In this document: positions 17,159-64,000 of the stretch, one piece after another
Layout of the letters: each line of letters begins with the position of its first letter
Position numbering within the stretch: the first letter of the stretch is position 1
NCBI GenBank assembly: GCA_905478415.1
Contig: CAJQIG010000002.1
Span: 186,699-250,698, forward strand
Length of the DNA stretch: 64,000 bases
Reading direction: 5' to 3'
Source: an uncultured Patescibacteria group bacterium
GTDB lineage: Bacteria; Patescibacteriota; Microgenomatia; UBA1400; PJMF01
Program-made: the position numbers and the translations under genes
Notes under the pieces: model-generated
What the model was told of the DNA's origin: nothing
What the model saw: the letters and a program-made list of their open reading frames with translations, nothing else
The model's database searches: none

Positions 17159-17186
17159 TTTACAATTGAGTCCTATATGTTATAAT
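17159..17186 (+). promoter_or_regulatory. promoter with extended -10 (TTTACA-16-TGtTATAAT)
   Basis: upstream of the 17256 ORF. Confidence 0.45.
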
Positions 17187-17255
17187 ATAGGTGCTTAAAC
17201 ATAGTAATTATGTCCGGATTCTTATCTGGCATACCGTTCCTTAAAGGAGAAAACA

Positions 17256-17546
17256 GTGGTTACACCAAATCATTTAGATGTCACAGAAGTTGTTAAAACA
17301 GAAGGTGGTTTTCTAGCAACAAAATCAGTGAAAACCGTTTCGATTACCAACAATCATCAAACTGAGTCAGTTTCAGTAAGGTATTGTCATCACAATGTGA
17401 TGTCGCATTACAGCTACGGAAGCATCCCTCAACAAATAATCTGGCTTACTCCAGGTTTTAGCGTTGATATAATTATGGATCACGACGGCTCCATCGAGAT
17501 ATTCGGAAGTGGGATGCCAGTCAAGTTGATAACTCACTCGACCTAA
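17256..17546 (+). CDS. hypothetical small protein
   Basis: 96-aa ORF (GTG start) with a promoter upstream and a terminator downstream. Confidence 0.3.
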   Translation: MVTPNHLDVTEVVKTEGGFLATKSVKTVSITNNHQTESVSVRYCHHNVMSHYSYGSIPQQIIWLTPGFSVDIIMDHDGSIEIFGSGMPVKLITHST

Positions 17547-17571
17547 TACCTTAGTTTTTATGTTTAATGTA

Positions 17572-17603
17572 CAAAGCGCCATTTTTTATGGCGCTTTTTT
17601 TTG
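17572..17603 (+). terminator. rho-independent terminator
   Basis: gcgccat-ttttt-atggcgc followed by tttttttt. Confidence 0.6.
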
Positions 17604-24155: not shown

Positions 24156-24419
24156 TCAGTATTGATCATGGTTTACTAAATCAAAAAAGATGTAAACATC
24201 ATCTTCTTTAATTGCCAATGCTCTCAAATCTCCTTTTATTCGAATAGCATACTGACTAGATCTTTCACCTTTTAATCTATGCAAACGCAACCCCATATGA
24301 TAGGGATTTTCTTTAAATTTTTTAAACTGTTTTCTAAAAATTTTATCCAAAAGAGGATTTTTATTCTTAAACTTTACTACTTTTCTCTTAAATGACTCTG
24401 TATAAACAACTTTTATCAT
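24156..24419 (-). CDS. type II toxin, RelE/ParE superfamily
   Basis: 87 aa; RLHRLKGERSSQYAIRIKGDLRALAIKEDDVYIFFDLVNHDQY matches the RelE-family C-terminal pattern; overlaps the upstream antitoxin by 4 nt. Confidence 0.55.
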   Translation of the reverse strand: MIKVVYTESFKRKVVKFKNKNPLLDKIFRKQFKKFKENPYHMGLRLHRLKGERSSQYAIRIKGDLRALAIKEDDVYIFFDLVNHDQY

Positions 24420-24673
24420 AAAGAGTCAAAAAATTCATCAACATTAATCATTTCGTGGGTTTTTCCCAAACGATGCTCTTCCAAAGCCTTTAAGCCACTT
24501 TCTTCTGTTTTCTTACTCATTTTAAAAGTTGGAACTTCATTTTTCAAAATTTCTTCTGAGGCTTTACTTATAAAAAAACGAATAGTTTTGGGTAAATTAT
24601 ACCCAAATTGAGAACCATAATTTTTTAAAAGGGTAGCTTCTTGAGTTGTAAGAGTTAATTGAACTTTAGTCAT
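24416..24673 (-). CDS. putative antitoxin
   Basis: 85-aa ORF immediately upstream of and translationally coupled to the toxin. Confidence 0.4.
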   Translation of the reverse strand: MTKVQLTLTTQEATLLKNYGSQFGYNLPKTIRFFISKASEEILKNEVPTFKMSKKTEESGLKALEEHRLGKTHEMINVDEFFDSL

Positions 24674-24738
24674 ATGTATTAGTATTATATTATAAAATCA
24701 TTGTTTTGTAAATACTTTAATACTACTTTTGATATTTC

Positions 24739-24769
24739 TTGGGGATTAGTGAAGGATGTTCGAACCTAT
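24739..24769 (+). repeat. cassette-boundary repeat R2
   Basis: ttggggattagtgaaggatgttcgaacctat; abuts the stop codon of the YoeB-like gene. Confidence 0.6.
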
Positions 24770-25044
24770 TTGTACACCTGATCATGAGTTCCAAAACTAA
24801 AAAAAACAATTTTAGACATGTTTCCATCCTGATTATAGTAATAAAGTAATCGATGGGACATATCTACAGAAATACTCCAACTCTCTCTTTGACCTCCGCT
24901 CAATTTGTGGAGTCGTAATGACGGATGATTTTTGTTCTGTTCGAACAATACTAACTGCTTTTTAATTTTTGTGAATAACTGTGTATCGTTTTTTTTAACT
25001 CTTTGCAATTGCTTCAAACATTTTGGTGAAAACGCAATTTCCAT
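24766..25044 (-). CDS. yoeB: type II toxin, YoeB/Txe family
   Basis: HPSLRLHKLSGGQRESWSISVDMSHRLLYYY...FGTHDQVY matches the YoeB pattern (KHNLSGFWSRRI..EHRLVY..RYHY). Confidence 0.65.
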   Translation of the reverse strand: MEIAFSPKCLKQLQRVKKNDTQLFTKIKKQLVLFEQNKNHPSLRLHKLSGGQRESWSISVDMSHRLLYYYNQDGNMSKIVFFSFGTHDQVYK

Positions 25045-25046
25045 TG

Positions 25047-25307
25047 CTATAGATCCTGGAGCAACTTGCCAACGTCATTAGTTTGGATTAAATCTCCAGT
25101 TTTTTCTGCCTCTACAGCCTCTTTAAGATCGTTAGTTGATTGACTGGACATTTCAAAAACAGGATAGTCAACGTCTTGAACATCATTTATCACTAAATTT
25201 CTGATGTAAGCTGATAAGCTAAGACCGTATTTATTAGCTTTAGTCTGCAAGTAACCTTGCAACTGGACTGGTAATGTAACTCTAATTTGAGTAGTTTGTG
25301 TTTGCAT
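25047..25307 (-). CDS. putative antitoxin paired with the YoeB-like toxin
   Basis: 86 aa; 2-nt gap to the toxin gene; IRVTLPVQLQGYL N-terminus. Confidence 0.45.
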   Translation of the reverse strand: MQTQTTQIRVTLPVQLQGYLQTKANKYGLSLSAYIRNLVINDVQDVDYPVFEMSSQSTNDLKEAVEAEKTGDLIQTNDVGKLLQDL

Positions 25308-60703: not shown

Positions 60704-61527
60704 TGCTAGCAGAATTTACCTCCCTCTTTGAGTTCGCCTTTTTCCAGAGAGCCCTGGTTGCGGGATTTTTGCTAGCAATCTTGGCTGGCATTGTAGGCGT
60801 ATTTAGCTCGATCAGAAAATCGACTTTTTTTGGTGATGCCATTGCTCACTCAGCTTTAGCTGGGGTTGCCCTAGGACTTTTTTTCAATGTGAATCCGCTG
60901 CTTTCTGCCGCAATCTATGCCGTGATAATTTCTGTGGCCTTGCCATGGTTTAAGAAACAGACGGGTTTTTCATTTGATTCGCTCCTAGGTATTTTGTTAC
61001 CAGTTTCAATGGGATTGGGAGTGATTATTTTTGCTTTACTGCCGGGATATCAACCAAATTTGTTAAGTTTTCTTTTTGGAAATTTACTGGCCGTCACCAG
61101 TACAGATTTGTATTTTTTGCTTGGATTATTTGTGGTGGTAGTAGGTGCACTACCTTTTTTTGGTCGAAAACTTTTATTTGTTTCACTTGATCCAGAGCAG
61201 GCTCAGTTGTTGGGTATCCCCGTTGCTTTTTACGAGTTGGTCTATCACTTTTTGATTGCACTTACCGTTGTTTCTGGAGTTCGGCTTGTTGGAGTCGTAT
61301 TGATTAATGCCTTTTTAGTTATTCCTTCGATGGTTGTGAGTTTACACGCTCGTTCACTGCAACAGTTATTTGTACTAACTCCGGTTGTGGCCTTTCTCTC
61401 AGTTGTGGGTGGGTTATTTCTTTCAGTTATTTTCAATTTACCCTCTGGAGCAACGATTGCAGTTTTTTCTGGTTTCGTATTTCTATGCAGTGTGAGTGTA
61501 AAAAAATTGAGGGGTGGTACCACATGA
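60703..61527 (+). CDS. znuB: metal ABC transporter permease
   Basis: 8 TM helices; position within the znu operon. Confidence 0.75.
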   Translation: MLAEFTSLFEFAFFQRALVAGFLLAILAGIVGVFSSIRKSTFFGDAIAHSALAGVALGLFFNVNPLLSAAIYAVIISVALPWFKKQTGFSFDSLLGILLPVSMGLGVIIFALLPGYQPNLLSFLFGNLLAVTSTDLYFLLGLFVVVVGALPFFGRKLLFVSLDPEQAQLLGIPVAFYELVYHFLIALTVVSGVRLVGVVLINAFLVIPSMVVSLHARSLQQLFVLTPVVAFLSVVGGLFLSVIFNLPSGATIAVFSGFVFLCSVSVKKLRGGTT

Positions 61528-61916
61528 AAAAGAGAAATCTTAAACAATTAGTTGTACAGATTTTAGAAGCTAATCATTATCTTACGGTCAGTGAAGTCAT
61601 GGTTGAACTAGAAAAGGTGGGGCACTCGTTCAACAAAACTAGTGTGTACCGGAACATTGAAAAGCTGAGCGAAGAGAAGCAGGTTTGTCGCCACTCATTC
61701 GGCACAGATAAAGTCTACTATGAGTTGCGTAGACTCGACGAGCACCATCACCATGATCATTTTGTATGCGAAGGTTGCCACAAGATAGAACCACTCGATT
61801 GTAGTGTAGAAGTGGTGAATACACCTACTAATTATAAGGTTGACCACCATCACATGACCATTTTTGGCACCTGTGATCAGTGTCAAAAATATGACCGAAC
61901 ACATTCGCCTAGCTAA
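61524..61916 (+). CDS. zur: Fur-family metal-responsive regulator (Zur-like)
   Basis: winged-helix segment plus HHHDHFVCEGCHKIEP metal sites. Confidence 0.7.
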   Translation: MKKRNLKQLVVQILEANHYLTVSEVMVELEKVGHSFNKTSVYRNIEKLSEEKQVCRHSFGTDKVYYELRRLDEHHHHDHFVCEGCHKIEPLDCSVEVVNTPTNYKVDHHHMTIFGTCDQCQKYDRTHSPS

Positions 61917-62943
61917 TCCACAACCAAAAATTTGGTTGATTCTGGTTCTATTCCTGACAGCCTTAGGGCTACTCCTTGTCTCATTGTTCATTACTACTGG
62001 CGGTTGGCAGCAAGATCAATCCTCATGGTTTGGTGAGCAACTTGAAAGTCCGGCCGAGGTGCCGAAAATAGAGCCAGAGCTTGAAATCCCTCAAGAAATA
62101 GAAAAAAGGTCAGTCACCCTTCTTTTTGGCGGAGACCTACAGTTTGATCGCTATATTCGACGCCAGGCAATGGGCCATGGAAGTTACGAATACATATTTA
62201 AAGAACTCGAATCACTCTTTGCAGAAGTTGACGGAGTTATCGCCAATCTAGAAGGGCCGGTGACCAGTTTTGATTCAGTCAGTCTCGGTTCAGTTGTTGG
62301 TAGTCGCGATAACTATATATTCACTTTCAGTCCAGAGGTTGTGCCGGTACTTAAAAATCTGGGTTTTGTGTTACTAAACCTGGGAAATAATCATATTTTA
62401 AATTTTGGTCAGGATGGCTTGGAAGAAACAAAGCAGTTGCTGGATGATGCCCAGATTGGGTATTGGGGAAATACTGGCGGCGAAACCTGGCTCGATGATT
62501 CGTTTTATTTGTACGAGCAGCATGGTGTTCAAATTTTATTTGTAAACTACAATGAATTCCTGTTTGGCGACAGAGAAGAACTGTTAGTCGAGATGCGAGT
62601 GCGTAAGGAACGACTCCAACCTGATTTTATGGTGGTCTACACTCACTGGGGGACTGAGTATCAGCAAGTTGCTAGTGAGTACTATCAGGATTTGGCTACC
62701 GAACTTGTCATAGCCGGAGCCGATATGATAATCGGTTCTCATCCACATGTGATCCAACAGCACCAGCAAATAGGCTCTGCGATGGTGTATTATTCTTTGG
62801 GGAATTTTGTATTTGATCAATATTTCGAAACAGCAGTGCGCAAGGGAACTTTGCTAAAAACAACCTTTACTGCCGGTGAAGAACTGAGTGTTTCAGAAGT
62901 GCCTATTTTCTTAGAAGGCACGGGAAAAACAGTTTTGGAGTAG
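61891..62943 (+). CDS. CapA-family metallophosphatase (poly-gamma-glutamate capsule synthesis-like)
   Basis: NLGNNH, YTHWGTEY and IIGSHPHV motifs; N-terminal TM. Confidence 0.65.
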   Translation: MTEHIRLANPQPKIWLILVLFLTALGLLLVSLFITTGGWQQDQSSWFGEQLESPAEVPKIEPELEIPQEIEKRSVTLLFGGDLQFDRYIRRQAMGHGSYEYIFKELESLFAEVDGVIANLEGPVTSFDSVSLGSVVGSRDNYIFTFSPEVVPVLKNLGFVLLNLGNNHILNFGQDGLEETKQLLDDAQIGYWGNTGGETWLDDSFYLYEQHGVQILFVNYNEFLFGDREELLVEMRVRKERLQPDFMVVYTHWGTEYQQVASEYYQDLATELVIAGADMIIGSHPHVIQQHQQIGSAMVYYSLGNFVFDQYFETAVRKGTLLKTTFTAGEELSVSEVPIFLEGTGKTVLE

Positions 62944-63017
62944 CAATTTGACTCTTTTTGAGCGAGTAACTTCAGACCAATTTCCTCGAGAAGCACTCTC
63001 CTTAGTGTGAAAAAGTA

Positions 63018-63046
63018 TTGACAAAGCCCATAACTAATGTTATTAT
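63018..63046 (+). promoter_or_regulatory. strong promoter P1 (TTGACA-17-TgtTATTAT, extended -10)
   Basis: near-identical to P2 at 63648. Confidence 0.55.
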
Positions 63047-63049
63047 ACT

Positions 63050-63590
63050 TATGTTGTTGTTTTCAACGCGCTTTTCTAAGTGTGGCTGAGAAAAACACGT
63101 ACATTAACAGACATTAGAAAAAATTCATTGTAAAACGTGAGTTTCCGGATGTCGTTAGAATTGATCAACATTGGTCTGTTCTCACGACTTCCGGAATATC
63201 TCACAAAAATGGGTGAGTGACCGGAATATATGCATCGCGCTGTAGTCGCAGCTGGATCGGTGCATCTTTACCCTCTTTTTAGAGGGCCGTTCGCCGACAA
63301 GGAAGTCGGCAGGGGTTTAGATGGGCAAATGTACCTCTTATACCAATTGCCTAGGTTGGAAGTCATCCTGTGATTAAAAACTTCCACTCTTATTCCATGT
63401 GCCTTTTTAGGCACGTCGCTCAAAGCCTGCCCGGCGAGCGACCACTCGAGGGTAGCAAGCGCAGCTACCCAACACTCAGTCCCCAAAATGGGGCCGGAAG
63501 CAATGGATTAATGACATCGCGCTGGTCATATCTAATGCTTCTGAGGGGTGTGGTTCGACTTTTGTTTCGAACCCACCCCTTTTTTTATTT
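63050..63590 (+). ncRNA. candidate ~0.5-kb GC-rich structured non-coding RNA (identity unknown)
   Basis: promoter-to-terminator unit with no convincing ORF; many local hairpins (ccctct/agaggg, gccgac/gtcggc, gtgcct/aggcac, gtcgctc/gagcgac); ~50% GC vs ~39% background. Confidence 0.3.
63545..63590 (+). terminator. strong rho-independent terminator (14-bp stem)
   Basis: ggggtgtggttcga-cttttgt-ttcgaacccacccc followed by ttttttt. Confidence 0.65.
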
Positions 63591-63647
63591 TTTCCTCTTT
63601 TATAGAGGATTTTTTGTATCTGAAATGGAGGAGAGTAGTCCCAGATA

Positions 63648-63676
63648 TTGACAAATCCCATAATATTTGTTATAAT
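63648..63676 (+). promoter_or_regulatory. strong promoter P2 (TTGACA-17-TgtTATAAT, extended -10)
   Basis: consensus hexamers; the transcript runs off the window end. Confidence 0.55.
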
Positions 63677-64000
63677 AATTGATATTGTTGGGACGTTTGT
63701 TCCAACTGCACATTTACTACTTTGGCCAATCTTCAGTGAGCGGCCAATTTGGATCATGTACAACTCTAAGTACGTGGTCCATATTGGCTGTTTGCTGGAC
63801 TATGGGGATTAGCATCCCACCATAGATTCAGAGCCCACAAGCACCACCACCCCAATCTCGAAAGTGGGTGGTAAACACTTCGTCTCTAGCTCCAGAGTGA
63901 GTTTTAGAGATAGGGCAACGATCCATTCTTAGTACTTTCACCTGAAAAGATCAGGGCAACAGGCACGTTGCATAAGTACTAATGGCCGGCAAGGTAGTGC

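Follow-up and report, generated by a model that had tools for sequence, protein, structure and literature searches.

What is transcribed from two near-identical strong promoters that lie 630 nucleotides (nt) apart at one end of a stretch of Patescibacteria DNA? The question was raised by an earlier note on a 64,000-nt stretch, here called the window, from an uncultured Patescibacteria group bacterium (NCBI GenBank assembly GCA_905478415.1, contig CAJQIG010000002.1, positions 186,699 to 250,698 of the forward strand). From the letters alone, a large structured non-coding RNA (ncRNA), a long ribosomal RNA (rRNA) operon leader or an intron-like element had been proposed downstream of the two promoters, P1 and P2. 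Here, the two downstream units are termed RNA-A (from P1) and RNA-B (from P2). Together they occupy the ~1.3 kb that separate capA (PGA_cap family) from a gene for a Ferric_reduct-like membrane protein. With somewhat more confidence than doubt, the locus is read as two large structured RNA genes, each transcribed on its own, that form a new family or pair restricted to this lineage; the RNAs would act in trans by their fold, and RNA-B is maybe dual-function.

Anatomy, conservation and covariation of the two RNA units

Promoters were located by a consensus scan of positions 61500-64000. P1 and P2, both on the + strand, were the two top-ranked sites, far ahead of the rest, and their scores and extended -10 boxes (Table 1) bear out the earlier placement. 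They form a 35-nt direct repeat with 80% identity. Their common core, TTGACAAANCCCATAA, has no further copy in the window at 0-2 mismatches, and no strong antisense promoter was found by the scan in the region. A P1 counterpart is present at the equivalent position in the related loci L090, L096, L106 and L109. The P2 spacer, ATCCCATAATAT, is kept in the same four loci and in L110, and is similar in L107.

The extended -10 form TGTTATAAT is a general strong-promoter form in the window organism and not peculiar to P1 and P2, because it is also used by a unit at 17159-17597. This unit (TTTACA-16-TGTTATAAT, strong Shine-Dalgarno sequence, intrinsic terminator) carries an open reading frame (ORF) of 96 amino acids (aa) at 17256-17546 without Pfam match and lies directly upstream of a tRNA-Thr/Tyr/Thr cluster. 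Peculiar to P1 and P2 are the common spacer and the conservation across species. From the near-maximal consensus match and the conserved P2 spacer, high and probably co-ordinated expression of RNA-A and RNA-B is predicted.

For the ends of the units, contigs reaching beyond the window were used. When the capA product (350 aa, PGA_cap) was looked up by exact match, 16 contigs from several assemblies were obtained. The 1315-nt intergenic region is 100% identical on the six contigs that span all or nearly all of it, and two shorter contigs match where they cover it. On the identical contigs (window position 62944 corresponds to position 11054 of L001), the P2 transcript, which had been described as running off the window, reaches a terminator 218 nt past 64000. 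After P1, the terminator with a 14-base-pair (bp) stem of the earlier description was recovered, with one bulge, and is followed by a second terminator that had been missed. The T-run after this second terminator is placed in all homologues. Promoter and terminator positions of the RNA units are conserved across species.

RNA-A folds with a minimum free energy (MFE) of -208.7 kcal/mol (z = -8.8) and RNA-B with -203.7 kcal/mol (z = -10.4); for each, 0/100 shuffled sequences were as low. A 531-nt segment of the neighbouring capA coding sequence, used as control, folds at z = +0.99. The G+C content of the RNA region is 0.45-0.51, compared with a window mean of 0.418, so that 'GC-rich' holds as a relative excess and not in the literal sense. 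The palindromic hairpin motifs that had been reported after P1 were found again as an inverted repeat in RNA-A (Table 1). The absence of a credible ORF after P1 was confirmed: the longest + strand ORFs there have 47-93 aa, none with a Pfam match. Protein coding was also rejected for the locus as a whole, where no ORF has a Pfam match and the longest ORFs vary in strand and length between species. A recurrent + strand ORF over hairpin H2 of RNA-B (VSGQFGSCTTLS...) lacks a Shine-Dalgarno sequence and reflects the nucleotide conservation of a compensating hairpin.

The nearest homologues of the capA product (48-59% identity) are from Patescibacteria, including metagenome-assembled genomes of 'Candidatus Pacebacteria' from Crystal Geyser. 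In L090-L093, L096, L106, L109 and L110, the gap between capA and the Ferric_reduct-like gene measures ~1.2 kb and holds homologous RNAs. Both RNAs are present in L090-L093 and L096; L106 and L109 contain RNA-A and the start of RNA-B, where the contigs stop. Between the window organism and L090/L096, DNA identity is 75-77% in the RNA-B 5' domain (the first ~200 nt with H1, UGCACAUUUACUAC, H2 and H3), 77-78% in ychF, 61-63% in capA, 60-62% in the Ferric_reduct-like gene and 53-55% in RNA-A (70% for L090 vs L096). In its degree of conservation, the 5' domain of RNA-B equals the housekeeping gene ychF.

For covariation analysis with related genomes, the structure of RNA-B was computed with RNAalifold from five sequences, resulting in 92 pairs and 13 helices with 86.8% of cells paired. 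Compensatory change occurs in 38 of the 92 pairs, compared with 16.2 ± 2.9 in 500 column shuffles (0/500 reached 38), and sliding the partners by 1-3 columns lowers the number to 5-13. Support is best for H3 (6/9 pairs), H7-H9 (14/19 pairs) and H11. In the 5' block of RNA-A, likewise aligned from five sequences, 20 of 46 pairs are compensatory (9.4 ± 2.1 after shuffling, 0/500 as high; 2-7 after sliding). The 3' half of RNA-A (L090, L096 and L110) has 74 pairs, 15 of them compensatory. The structures of both RNAs were derived from the same alignments that were scored. Compensatory change above controls, the generic sign of a structured ncRNA, is present in RNA-B and in the RNA-A 5' block.

Known RNA families were searched with Rfam 15. 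At the gathering threshold, four tRNAs were the only matches in the whole window, all outside the RNA locus. Positions 62900-64000 (E <= 10) and L001 10900-13400 (E <= 1) gave only sub-threshold noise; its best match, a plant microRNA (miRNA) precursor with 26 bits vs an 80-bit cut-off, is spurious and caused by the long hairpin H2. Two sub-threshold miRNA hairpin matches were the only result for six homologous loci (E <= 0.5). ARAGORN detected no transfer-messenger RNA (tmRNA) in the window, L001, L090, L096, L098 or L100. None of the known Rfam 15 families (RNase P, tmRNA, 6S, signal recognition particle (SRP), OLE, GOLLD, ROOL, raiA, HEARO, introns, riboswitches) is matched at the gathering threshold, in line with the earlier failure to recognise RNase P, tmRNA, SRP or 6S RNA by eye. 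No Rfam family is matched, yet relatives do carry the region.

Among the three proposals made at the outset, an rRNA-operon leader is excluded because a terminator and then the Ferric_reduct-like protein gene, not an rRNA, follow the P2 transcript, and no rRNA was matched. Nor does an intron-like element fit: there is no group I or group II match at E <= 10, and the units are intergenic with their own promoters and terminators rather than inside a gene. A large structured ncRNA agrees with the promoter-to-terminator units, the lack of a conserved long ORF, the extreme folding z-scores, the syntenic conservation and the compensatory changes.

Other classes of element were considered and rejected. 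The region holds hairpins only, with no tandem or interspersed repeat units of a CRISPR- or TIGR-like array. A phage or mobile origin found no blastn match to phage records and no IMG/VR pattern match. No transposase or integrase genes lie nearby, and the locus has no terminal repeats. A full-text literature search returned no description of large ncRNAs from the Candidate Phyla Radiation.

Elements of the RNAs and their surroundings

Table 1. Positions of features at the RNA locus; positions past 64000 are window equivalents on identical contigs.
Feature	Position	Strand	Remarks
Conserved element GACCAATTTCCTCGAGA	62975-62991	+	Between capA stop codon and P1; invariant in three-species alignment
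Promoter P1	63018-63046	+	TTGACA, 17-nt spacer ending in TGT, TATTAT; 11/12 consensus plus TG
RNA-A	~63052-63615 (~560 nt)	+	Start predicted 6-7 nt past -10; end at second terminator
RNA-A 5' nested hairpin	63050-63101	+	Small hairpin inside outer stem; alignment A8, helix 1
RNA-A long hairpin	63143-63196 (pairs 63144-63195)	+	Inverted repeat TTCCGGA...TCCGGAA; A8 helix 2
RNA-A 3' GC-rich hairpin	63543-63586 (stem 63543-63580)	+	~14 bp with one bulge, then U-run; first terminator-like element, read from sequence
RNA-A second, short terminator	63593-63615	+	CCTC..GAGG plus T6; equals conserved CCUCC-loop-GGAGG-U7 of relatives
Promoter P2	63648-63676	+	TTGACA, 17 nt, TG-n-TATAAT; 12/12 consensus plus TG
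RNA-B	~63683 to 64218-equivalent (~536 nt; first 318 nt within window)	+	End from identical contigs
RNA-B hairpin H1	63687-63706	+	Alignment A7, columns 5-24; one A-U to G-C compensatory pair
Invariant motif UGCACAUUUACUAC	63707-63720	+	After H1; single-stranded in 5'-domain model
RNA-B hairpin H2	63738-63793	+	23-27 bp, invariant G-U wobbles, loop AACUCUAA; alignment A5, helix 1
RNA-B hairpin H3	63799-63826	+	A5 helix 2
RNA-B long-range helix, 5' strand AGCCC	63832-63836	+	Partner GGGCU at 64173-64177-equivalent, past window; A5 helix 4
RNA-B hairpin H4	63847-63871	+	CCACCCC...GGGUGG; A5 helix 5; 7 pairs, 2 compensatory
RNA-B H7 around hairpins H8 and H9	63928-63983	+	A5 helices 7-9
RNA-B terminator	64193-64218-equivalent (L001 12303-12328)	+	GGGTCTCTACGGGGACCC plus T8; intrinsic terminator on identical contigs
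Ferric_reduct-like membrane protein gene, 193 aa	Starts ~40 nt past RNA-B terminator	Same orientation as RNA-B	Weak Ferric_reduct match

In alignment A8, the 5' nested hairpin of RNA-A has 21 pairs, 7 of them with compensatory change, and 92% of cells paired; in the long hairpin, 13 of 25 pairs are compensatory. The counterpart of the 3' GC-rich hairpin in relatives carries compensatory changes as well. By reading, a 5' and a 3' element of RNA-A appear complementary in every species despite differing sequence (GUUUUAGAU/AUCUAAAAC, GCUUUAGAUAC/GUAUCCAAAGC, CAUUAGA/UCUAAUG and AGAAAUGA/UCAUUUCU). The 3' element is able to pair locally too, so that alternative folds would be possible. A tRNA-like RNA-A 3' end was considered for a T-arm look-alike in L090 (CAAGG-UUCAAUC-CUUGG) and rejected, as the loop is not kept in other species.

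In RNA-B, a counterpart of H1 is present in L100 and L107. H2 has 23 pairs in alignment A5, 5 of them compensatory, and 90% of cells paired. The AGCCC/GGGCU helix is paired in 100% of cells, with an A-U pair changed to G-C in copy 2 of L098. R1, a covariance model built for the 5' domain of RNA-B, scores 188 bits at the window copy. The invariant motif UGCACAUUUACUAC, the G-U wobbles of H2 and its loop AACUCUAA would be typical features of protein or tertiary contacts. In the full-length MFE fold of the window copy, the 3' part of UGCACAUUUACUAC pairs with ~63984-64000; this long-range pairing is a prediction of the model, and no covariation was seen in it. When the window was crudely searched for matches or complements of the invariant 14-mer, 9 sites were obtained, compared with 6.8 expected by chance. 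A one-mismatch copy, TGCATATTTACTAC (1363-1376, - strand), is contained in a ~1-kb stretch (1357-2358) without ORFs of at least 120 aa. With no matching promoter or fold around it, this copy is probably a chance match.

The promoter and the short 5' motif YUGCRCAWWWAC are all that RNA-A and RNA-B have in common. The blastn alignment of the two is limited to the first 42-44 nt (promoter), and the RNA-A profile matches RNA-B over the promoter only. Paralogy in the manner of sibling small RNAs (sRNAs) was rejected on these grounds, the bodies not being homologous. An RNA-A/RNA-B heteroduplex was rejected too, RNAduplex energies of -207 and -195 kcal/mol being no better than those of shuffled RNA-A (-215 ± 9 and -198 ± 8) in a program that is poorly suited to sequences of this length. 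Upstream of P1, the 17-nt element GACCAATTTCCTCGAGA is recognisable also in L106 and L109. It is better conserved than expected for a plain spacer between stop codon and -35 box, and is possibly a regulator-binding or UP-type site, or the capA 3' end.

All full-length RNA-B homologues contain a canonical Shine-Dalgarno sequence, CCAAAGGAGG, directly 3' of helix H6 (64001-64009-equivalent in the window organism). It usually reads AAGGAGG, with AAGGAAG in copy 1 of L098 and AAGGAG in L107. After a spacing of 7-8 nt follows UUG (CUG in the window organism, GUG in L107), which opens a mini-ORF of 14-19 codons with UAA or UAG as stop. The pattern is present in 6/6 RNA-B-type homologues, including the 300-nt form of L107 (scripted for four homologues, read by eye for L098 copy 2 and L107). 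Start and stop lie in homologous alignment columns despite indels, which are in frame since the lengths are 48, 51, 51, 57 and 60 nt. By hand count, 6/8 mini-ORF differences between the two L098 copies are at third codon positions. RNA-A has no counterpart of the mini-ORF (ORF comparison and reading).

Cationic rather than hydrophobic peptides are predicted, e.g. MVNKRTGIYHPILARD, MFKKQTGGFFIKNTTIGWK and (L/M)NFQSKANTKRLTLFRSS. A type I toxin-antitoxin system was rejected for this reason and for the lack of a strong antisense promoter in the region. Translation of the mini-ORF is plausible and unproven, and ribosome docking, rather than the peptide, may be its point. Because the long-range helix surrounds the stretch with the mini-ORF, access of ribosomes would be coupled to the overall fold.

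The locus is embedded in a conserved gene order: cysS, znuABC, a Fur-family gene, capA, the gap, the Ferric_reduct-like gene, ychF and rpsF-ssb-rpsR. The Ferric_reduct-like gene has its own extended -10 box, TGCTACACT, after the RNA-B terminator, conserved as TGnTAnACT. Downstream of this gene (L001 12951-13287, ~0.9-1.3 kb past the window end) lies a ~340-nt intergenic region in which a TGTTATAAT -10 box and hairpins are present. Only a sub-threshold miRNA-like match (L001 13150-13225) was returned by Rfam, and the region could be a further small RNA or leader.

In L098 (GCA_020632255.1, 7045-8241), the RNA-B-type copies are split by a ~65-nt duplicate of the downstream gene start including its promoter. 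The first junction there resembles a deletion between the capA-proximal conserved element and hairpin H2, both of which contain CAATTT. The junctions between capA and the Ferric_reduct-like gene in L094 (3751-3788) and L095 (7059-7096) measure 36 nt. L095 has an 880-nt low-GC gap after the Ferric_reduct-like gene, without similarity to RNA-A or RNA-B.

Many independent assemblies break within the RNA locus (L004, L008, L097, L099, L106, L109 and L110-L112). The Logan contigs L004 and L008 end exactly at the terminator U-runs of RNA-A and RNA-B, others at the apex or foot of H2. The breaks may be due to long inverted repeats that disrupt de Bruijn graphs, or to a sharp change in coverage. In a distant part of the window (24156-25307, - strand), two tandem pairs of 85-92-aa ORFs are present. 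The promoter-distal ORF of each pair matches YafQ/ParE/HigB-type toxins weakly and below threshold, and in one of the partners a NikA-like ribbon-helix-helix domain was matched; the pairs are probably two type II toxin-antitoxin modules.

Weighing the readings of the locus

If RNA-A and RNA-B are two large structured RNA genes, each unit would consist of a near-consensus sigma-70 extended -10 promoter, a multi-helix body of ~540-560 nt and an intrinsic terminator. The products would be abundant, stable RNAs that act by means of their fold and most likely serve as scaffolds to which proteins or other RNAs bind. They would be neither mRNAs of ordinary proteins nor leaders of adjacent genes. In RNA-B, the AGCCC/GGGCU helix closes the middle of the molecule and encloses the Shine-Dalgarno sequence and mini-ORF. 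RNA-B could be dual-function in an RNAIII-like manner, or ribosome binding could be part of its mechanism. RNA-A evolves faster than RNA-B, with truncation or loss in some relatives. Both would represent an uncatalogued family, or families, of a Pacebacteria-like clade of the Candidate Phyla Radiation.

Among the relatives, RNA copy number is two, one, rearranged or none. L100 has one ~640-nt RNA with promoter and 5' domain in common with RNA-B; a photolyase gene is inserted between this RNA and the Ferric_reduct-like gene. L107 has one ~300-nt 'minimal' RNA beside a convergent mgtE gene, with no Ferric_reduct gene present. Judged from these loci, the RNA family is real but narrow, with a fluid copy number.

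Several points weigh against two functional RNA genes. The start sites, ends and abundance of the RNAs are predictions only, and 'scaffold' is a default assignment, not a demonstrated mechanism. The covariation counts are not phylogeny-aware and were obtained from 5-6 distinct sequences per RNA in one narrow clade. The middle of RNA-A is not reliably alignable across subclades, and blocks and subclades were analysed instead. In L110, P2 and RNA-B come after an RNA-A that lacks P1 and ~200 nt at its start. L098 has two diverged RNA-B-type copies with no 5' domain or promoter, and no RNA-A. In L094 and L095, only 36 nt separate capA from the Ferric_reduct-like gene, and neither RNA was matched in the ~10 kb read; their capA is as close to that of the window organism as the capA of RNA-bearing relatives. 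Given such loss or rearrangement, the RNAs look dispensable. A wider contig scan with the capA profile added relatives at 31-46% identity, among the matches listed; in these ~1 Mb of more distant Patescibacteria loci, model R1 found no further copy. One metagenome scan with a degenerate 24-mer returned two genomes already known and three high-GC chance matches. Concerning the mini-ORF, the peptides are barely alignable between subclades and the frame opens with CUG in the window organism. It also overlaps two covarying hairpins (GGGAU/AUCCC, GGCG/CGCC, GGUG/CACC; helix 11) and may be a by-product of structure.

A more far-reaching version of the RNA-gene reading regards RNA-A and RNA-B as founders of one or two new large-RNA classes confined to a Candidate Phyla Radiation lineage, with a new function and a standing like that of OLE, GOLLD and ROOL, and not as variants of an RNA already known. 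This version is tentative, and doubt prevails over confidence in it. If true, the new class might be, for example, a ribonucleoprotein or RNA-only assembly, a ribozyme, or an RNA that docks to the 30S subunit via Shine-Dalgarno sequence and mini-ORF.

Alternatively, RNA-B might be the mRNA of a cationic micropeptide of 14-19 residues, with the conserved 320-nt 5' domain as a riboswitch-like or protein-controlled regulatory leader that would gate the access of ribosomes, and RNA-A as a diverging paralogue without ORF. A Shine-Dalgarno sequence, an NUG start, 14-19 codons and a stop in six of six RNA-B-type homologues would suit such an mRNA, as would the in-frame indels and the excess of third-position differences (6/8) between the L098 copies. 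The position of the ORF inside the long-range helix is a layout fit for translational control. However, the divergence of the peptides between subclades and the CUG start of the window organism speak against it, and compensatory change maintains the two hairpins that make up the ORF region. The 5' domain, not the ORF, is the most conserved part, and RNA-A lacks such an ORF. The micropeptide mRNA is considered unlikely on this evidence.

It is improbable to a higher degree that the region is a non-functional, selfish or decaying remnant of duplicated or mobile DNA, hairpin-rich by chance and with inconsequential promoters. Genomes of ~1 Mb seldom retain 1.2 kb of junk, and dozens of pairs are kept by compensatory change. 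The ychF-like conservation of the RNA-B 5' domain and the conserved promoter and terminator positions point in the same direction, as does the absence of transposase, integrase, terminal repeats and phage or IMG/VR matches. Decay would account for the presence/absence and copy-number variation among close relatives, for an RNA-A that evolves no more slowly than the flanking genes and for the very narrow distribution.

Even less can be said for cis-acting leaders or attenuators of the Ferric_reduct-like (MsrQ-like) gene in its metal-homeostasis neighbourhood (znuABC, Fur-family regulator, capA). In the window organism, L090, L096 and L098, RNA-B does lie directly upstream of this gene and is read in the same direction, with its terminator ~40 nt before the gene, and a short ORF upstream of a terminator recalls leader-peptide attenuators. 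But the strong terminator stem with eight U is followed by the gene's own conserved extended -10 promoter, the neighbours differ in L107 (convergent mgtE, no Ferric_reduct gene) and L100 (inserted photolyase), and L094 and L095 have the same gene pair without any RNA. A 540-nt leader plus a second one of 560 nt would also be of unprecedented size.

The least credible reading is a highly divergent known RNA (RNase P, tmRNA, 6S, SRP, ORF-less group I/II intron) or an rRNA leader in one or both units: housekeeping RNAs of Candidate Phyla Radiation bacteria are known to be divergent, strong constitutive-looking promoters are typical of such genes and Rfam finds no RNase P, tmRNA, SRP or 6S gene elsewhere in the window, so that the genome must carry these genes at some other place, but nothing was matched at E <= 10 in the 1.1-2.5-kb search space or at E <= 0.5 in the six homologous loci, ARAGORN found no tmRNA, no rRNA lies downstream, 540-560 nt is above typical sizes, the long-range helices covary, unlike helix P4 of RNase P, which is universally conserved (a comparison of value as a lead only), and absence or rearrangement in close relatives would be intolerable for a housekeeping RNA.

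Comparison with known systems

Bacterial RNAs of >500 nt with conserved complex folds are rare, and nearly all that were studied proved to be a ribozyme, the core of a ribonucleoprotein or an unexpected RNA assembly. In the Candidate Phyla Radiation, most bacteria are uncultured and genomes measure ~1 Mb with little spare DNA; the ncRNAs of these bacteria beyond rRNA, tRNA, RNase P and tmRNA are almost unexplored. Two RNAs on consensus promoters within 1.3 kb, together with the housekeeping-like conservation of one domain, therefore suggest a lineage-specific function. The Shine-Dalgarno sequence with its mini-ORF provides a concrete experimental handle. The natural variants constitute a ready-made deletion series, with two RNAs, one, a 300-nt minimal form, a promoter-less rearranged form and none. 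If the RNAs were dispensable and unexpressed, the locus would show the persistence of strongly folding, covarying sequence in streamlined genomes.

The large 'ornate' RNAs (OLE, GOLLD, ROOL, raiA and HEARO), whose functions are unknown or only now emerging, resemble RNA-A and RNA-B in their length of >500 nt, their covarying helices and conserved single-stranded patches, their organisation as independent non-coding units and their patchy, lineage-restricted distribution. They occur in Bacillota or phages, whereas RNA-A and RNA-B are found in the Candidate Phyla Radiation and match no Rfam model. Unlike the ornate RNAs, RNA-A and RNA-B are unrelated-looking, stand in tandem behind near-identical promoters and include, in RNA-B, a Shine-Dalgarno sequence with a mini-ORF.

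Dual-function RNAs are known from other bacteria. RNAIII of Staphylococcus aureus, with 514 nt, codes for the 26-aa delta-haemolysin, and SR1 and SgrS belong to the same category. RNA-B is comparable to RNAIII in its size of ~0.5 kb, its multi-hairpin, promoter-to-terminator build and its very short, structured ORF after a Shine-Dalgarno sequence. It differs in that there is no homology, the peptide is poorly conserved, the window organism uses a CUG start and no quorum-sensing or regulatory context is present.

Sibling or tandem sRNA genes are exemplified by Qrr1-5, LhrC1-5 and 6S-1/6S-2. Adjacency and near-identical promoters (80% over 35 nt) are features that RNA-A and RNA-B have in common with them, and therefore suggest co-regulation and an origin by tandem duplication. 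Sibling sRNAs, however, have common bodies, whereas the bodies of RNA-A and RNA-B are dissimilar and about five times longer. The tandem P1/P2 promoters of rRNA operons are similar in having two strong consensus promoters of the same orientation within ~630 nt. They differ from the present pair, in which each unit has its own terminator and no rRNA lies downstream.

The tested features that define membership in the compared families (covariance-model scores, homologous bodies) were all absent from RNA-A and RNA-B, which have only generic features, namely conserved structure and a promoter and terminator of their own, in common with them. The type of object, a large structured RNA of bacteria that may carry a mini-ORF, is familiar; the family, the host lineage and the tandem layout are new.

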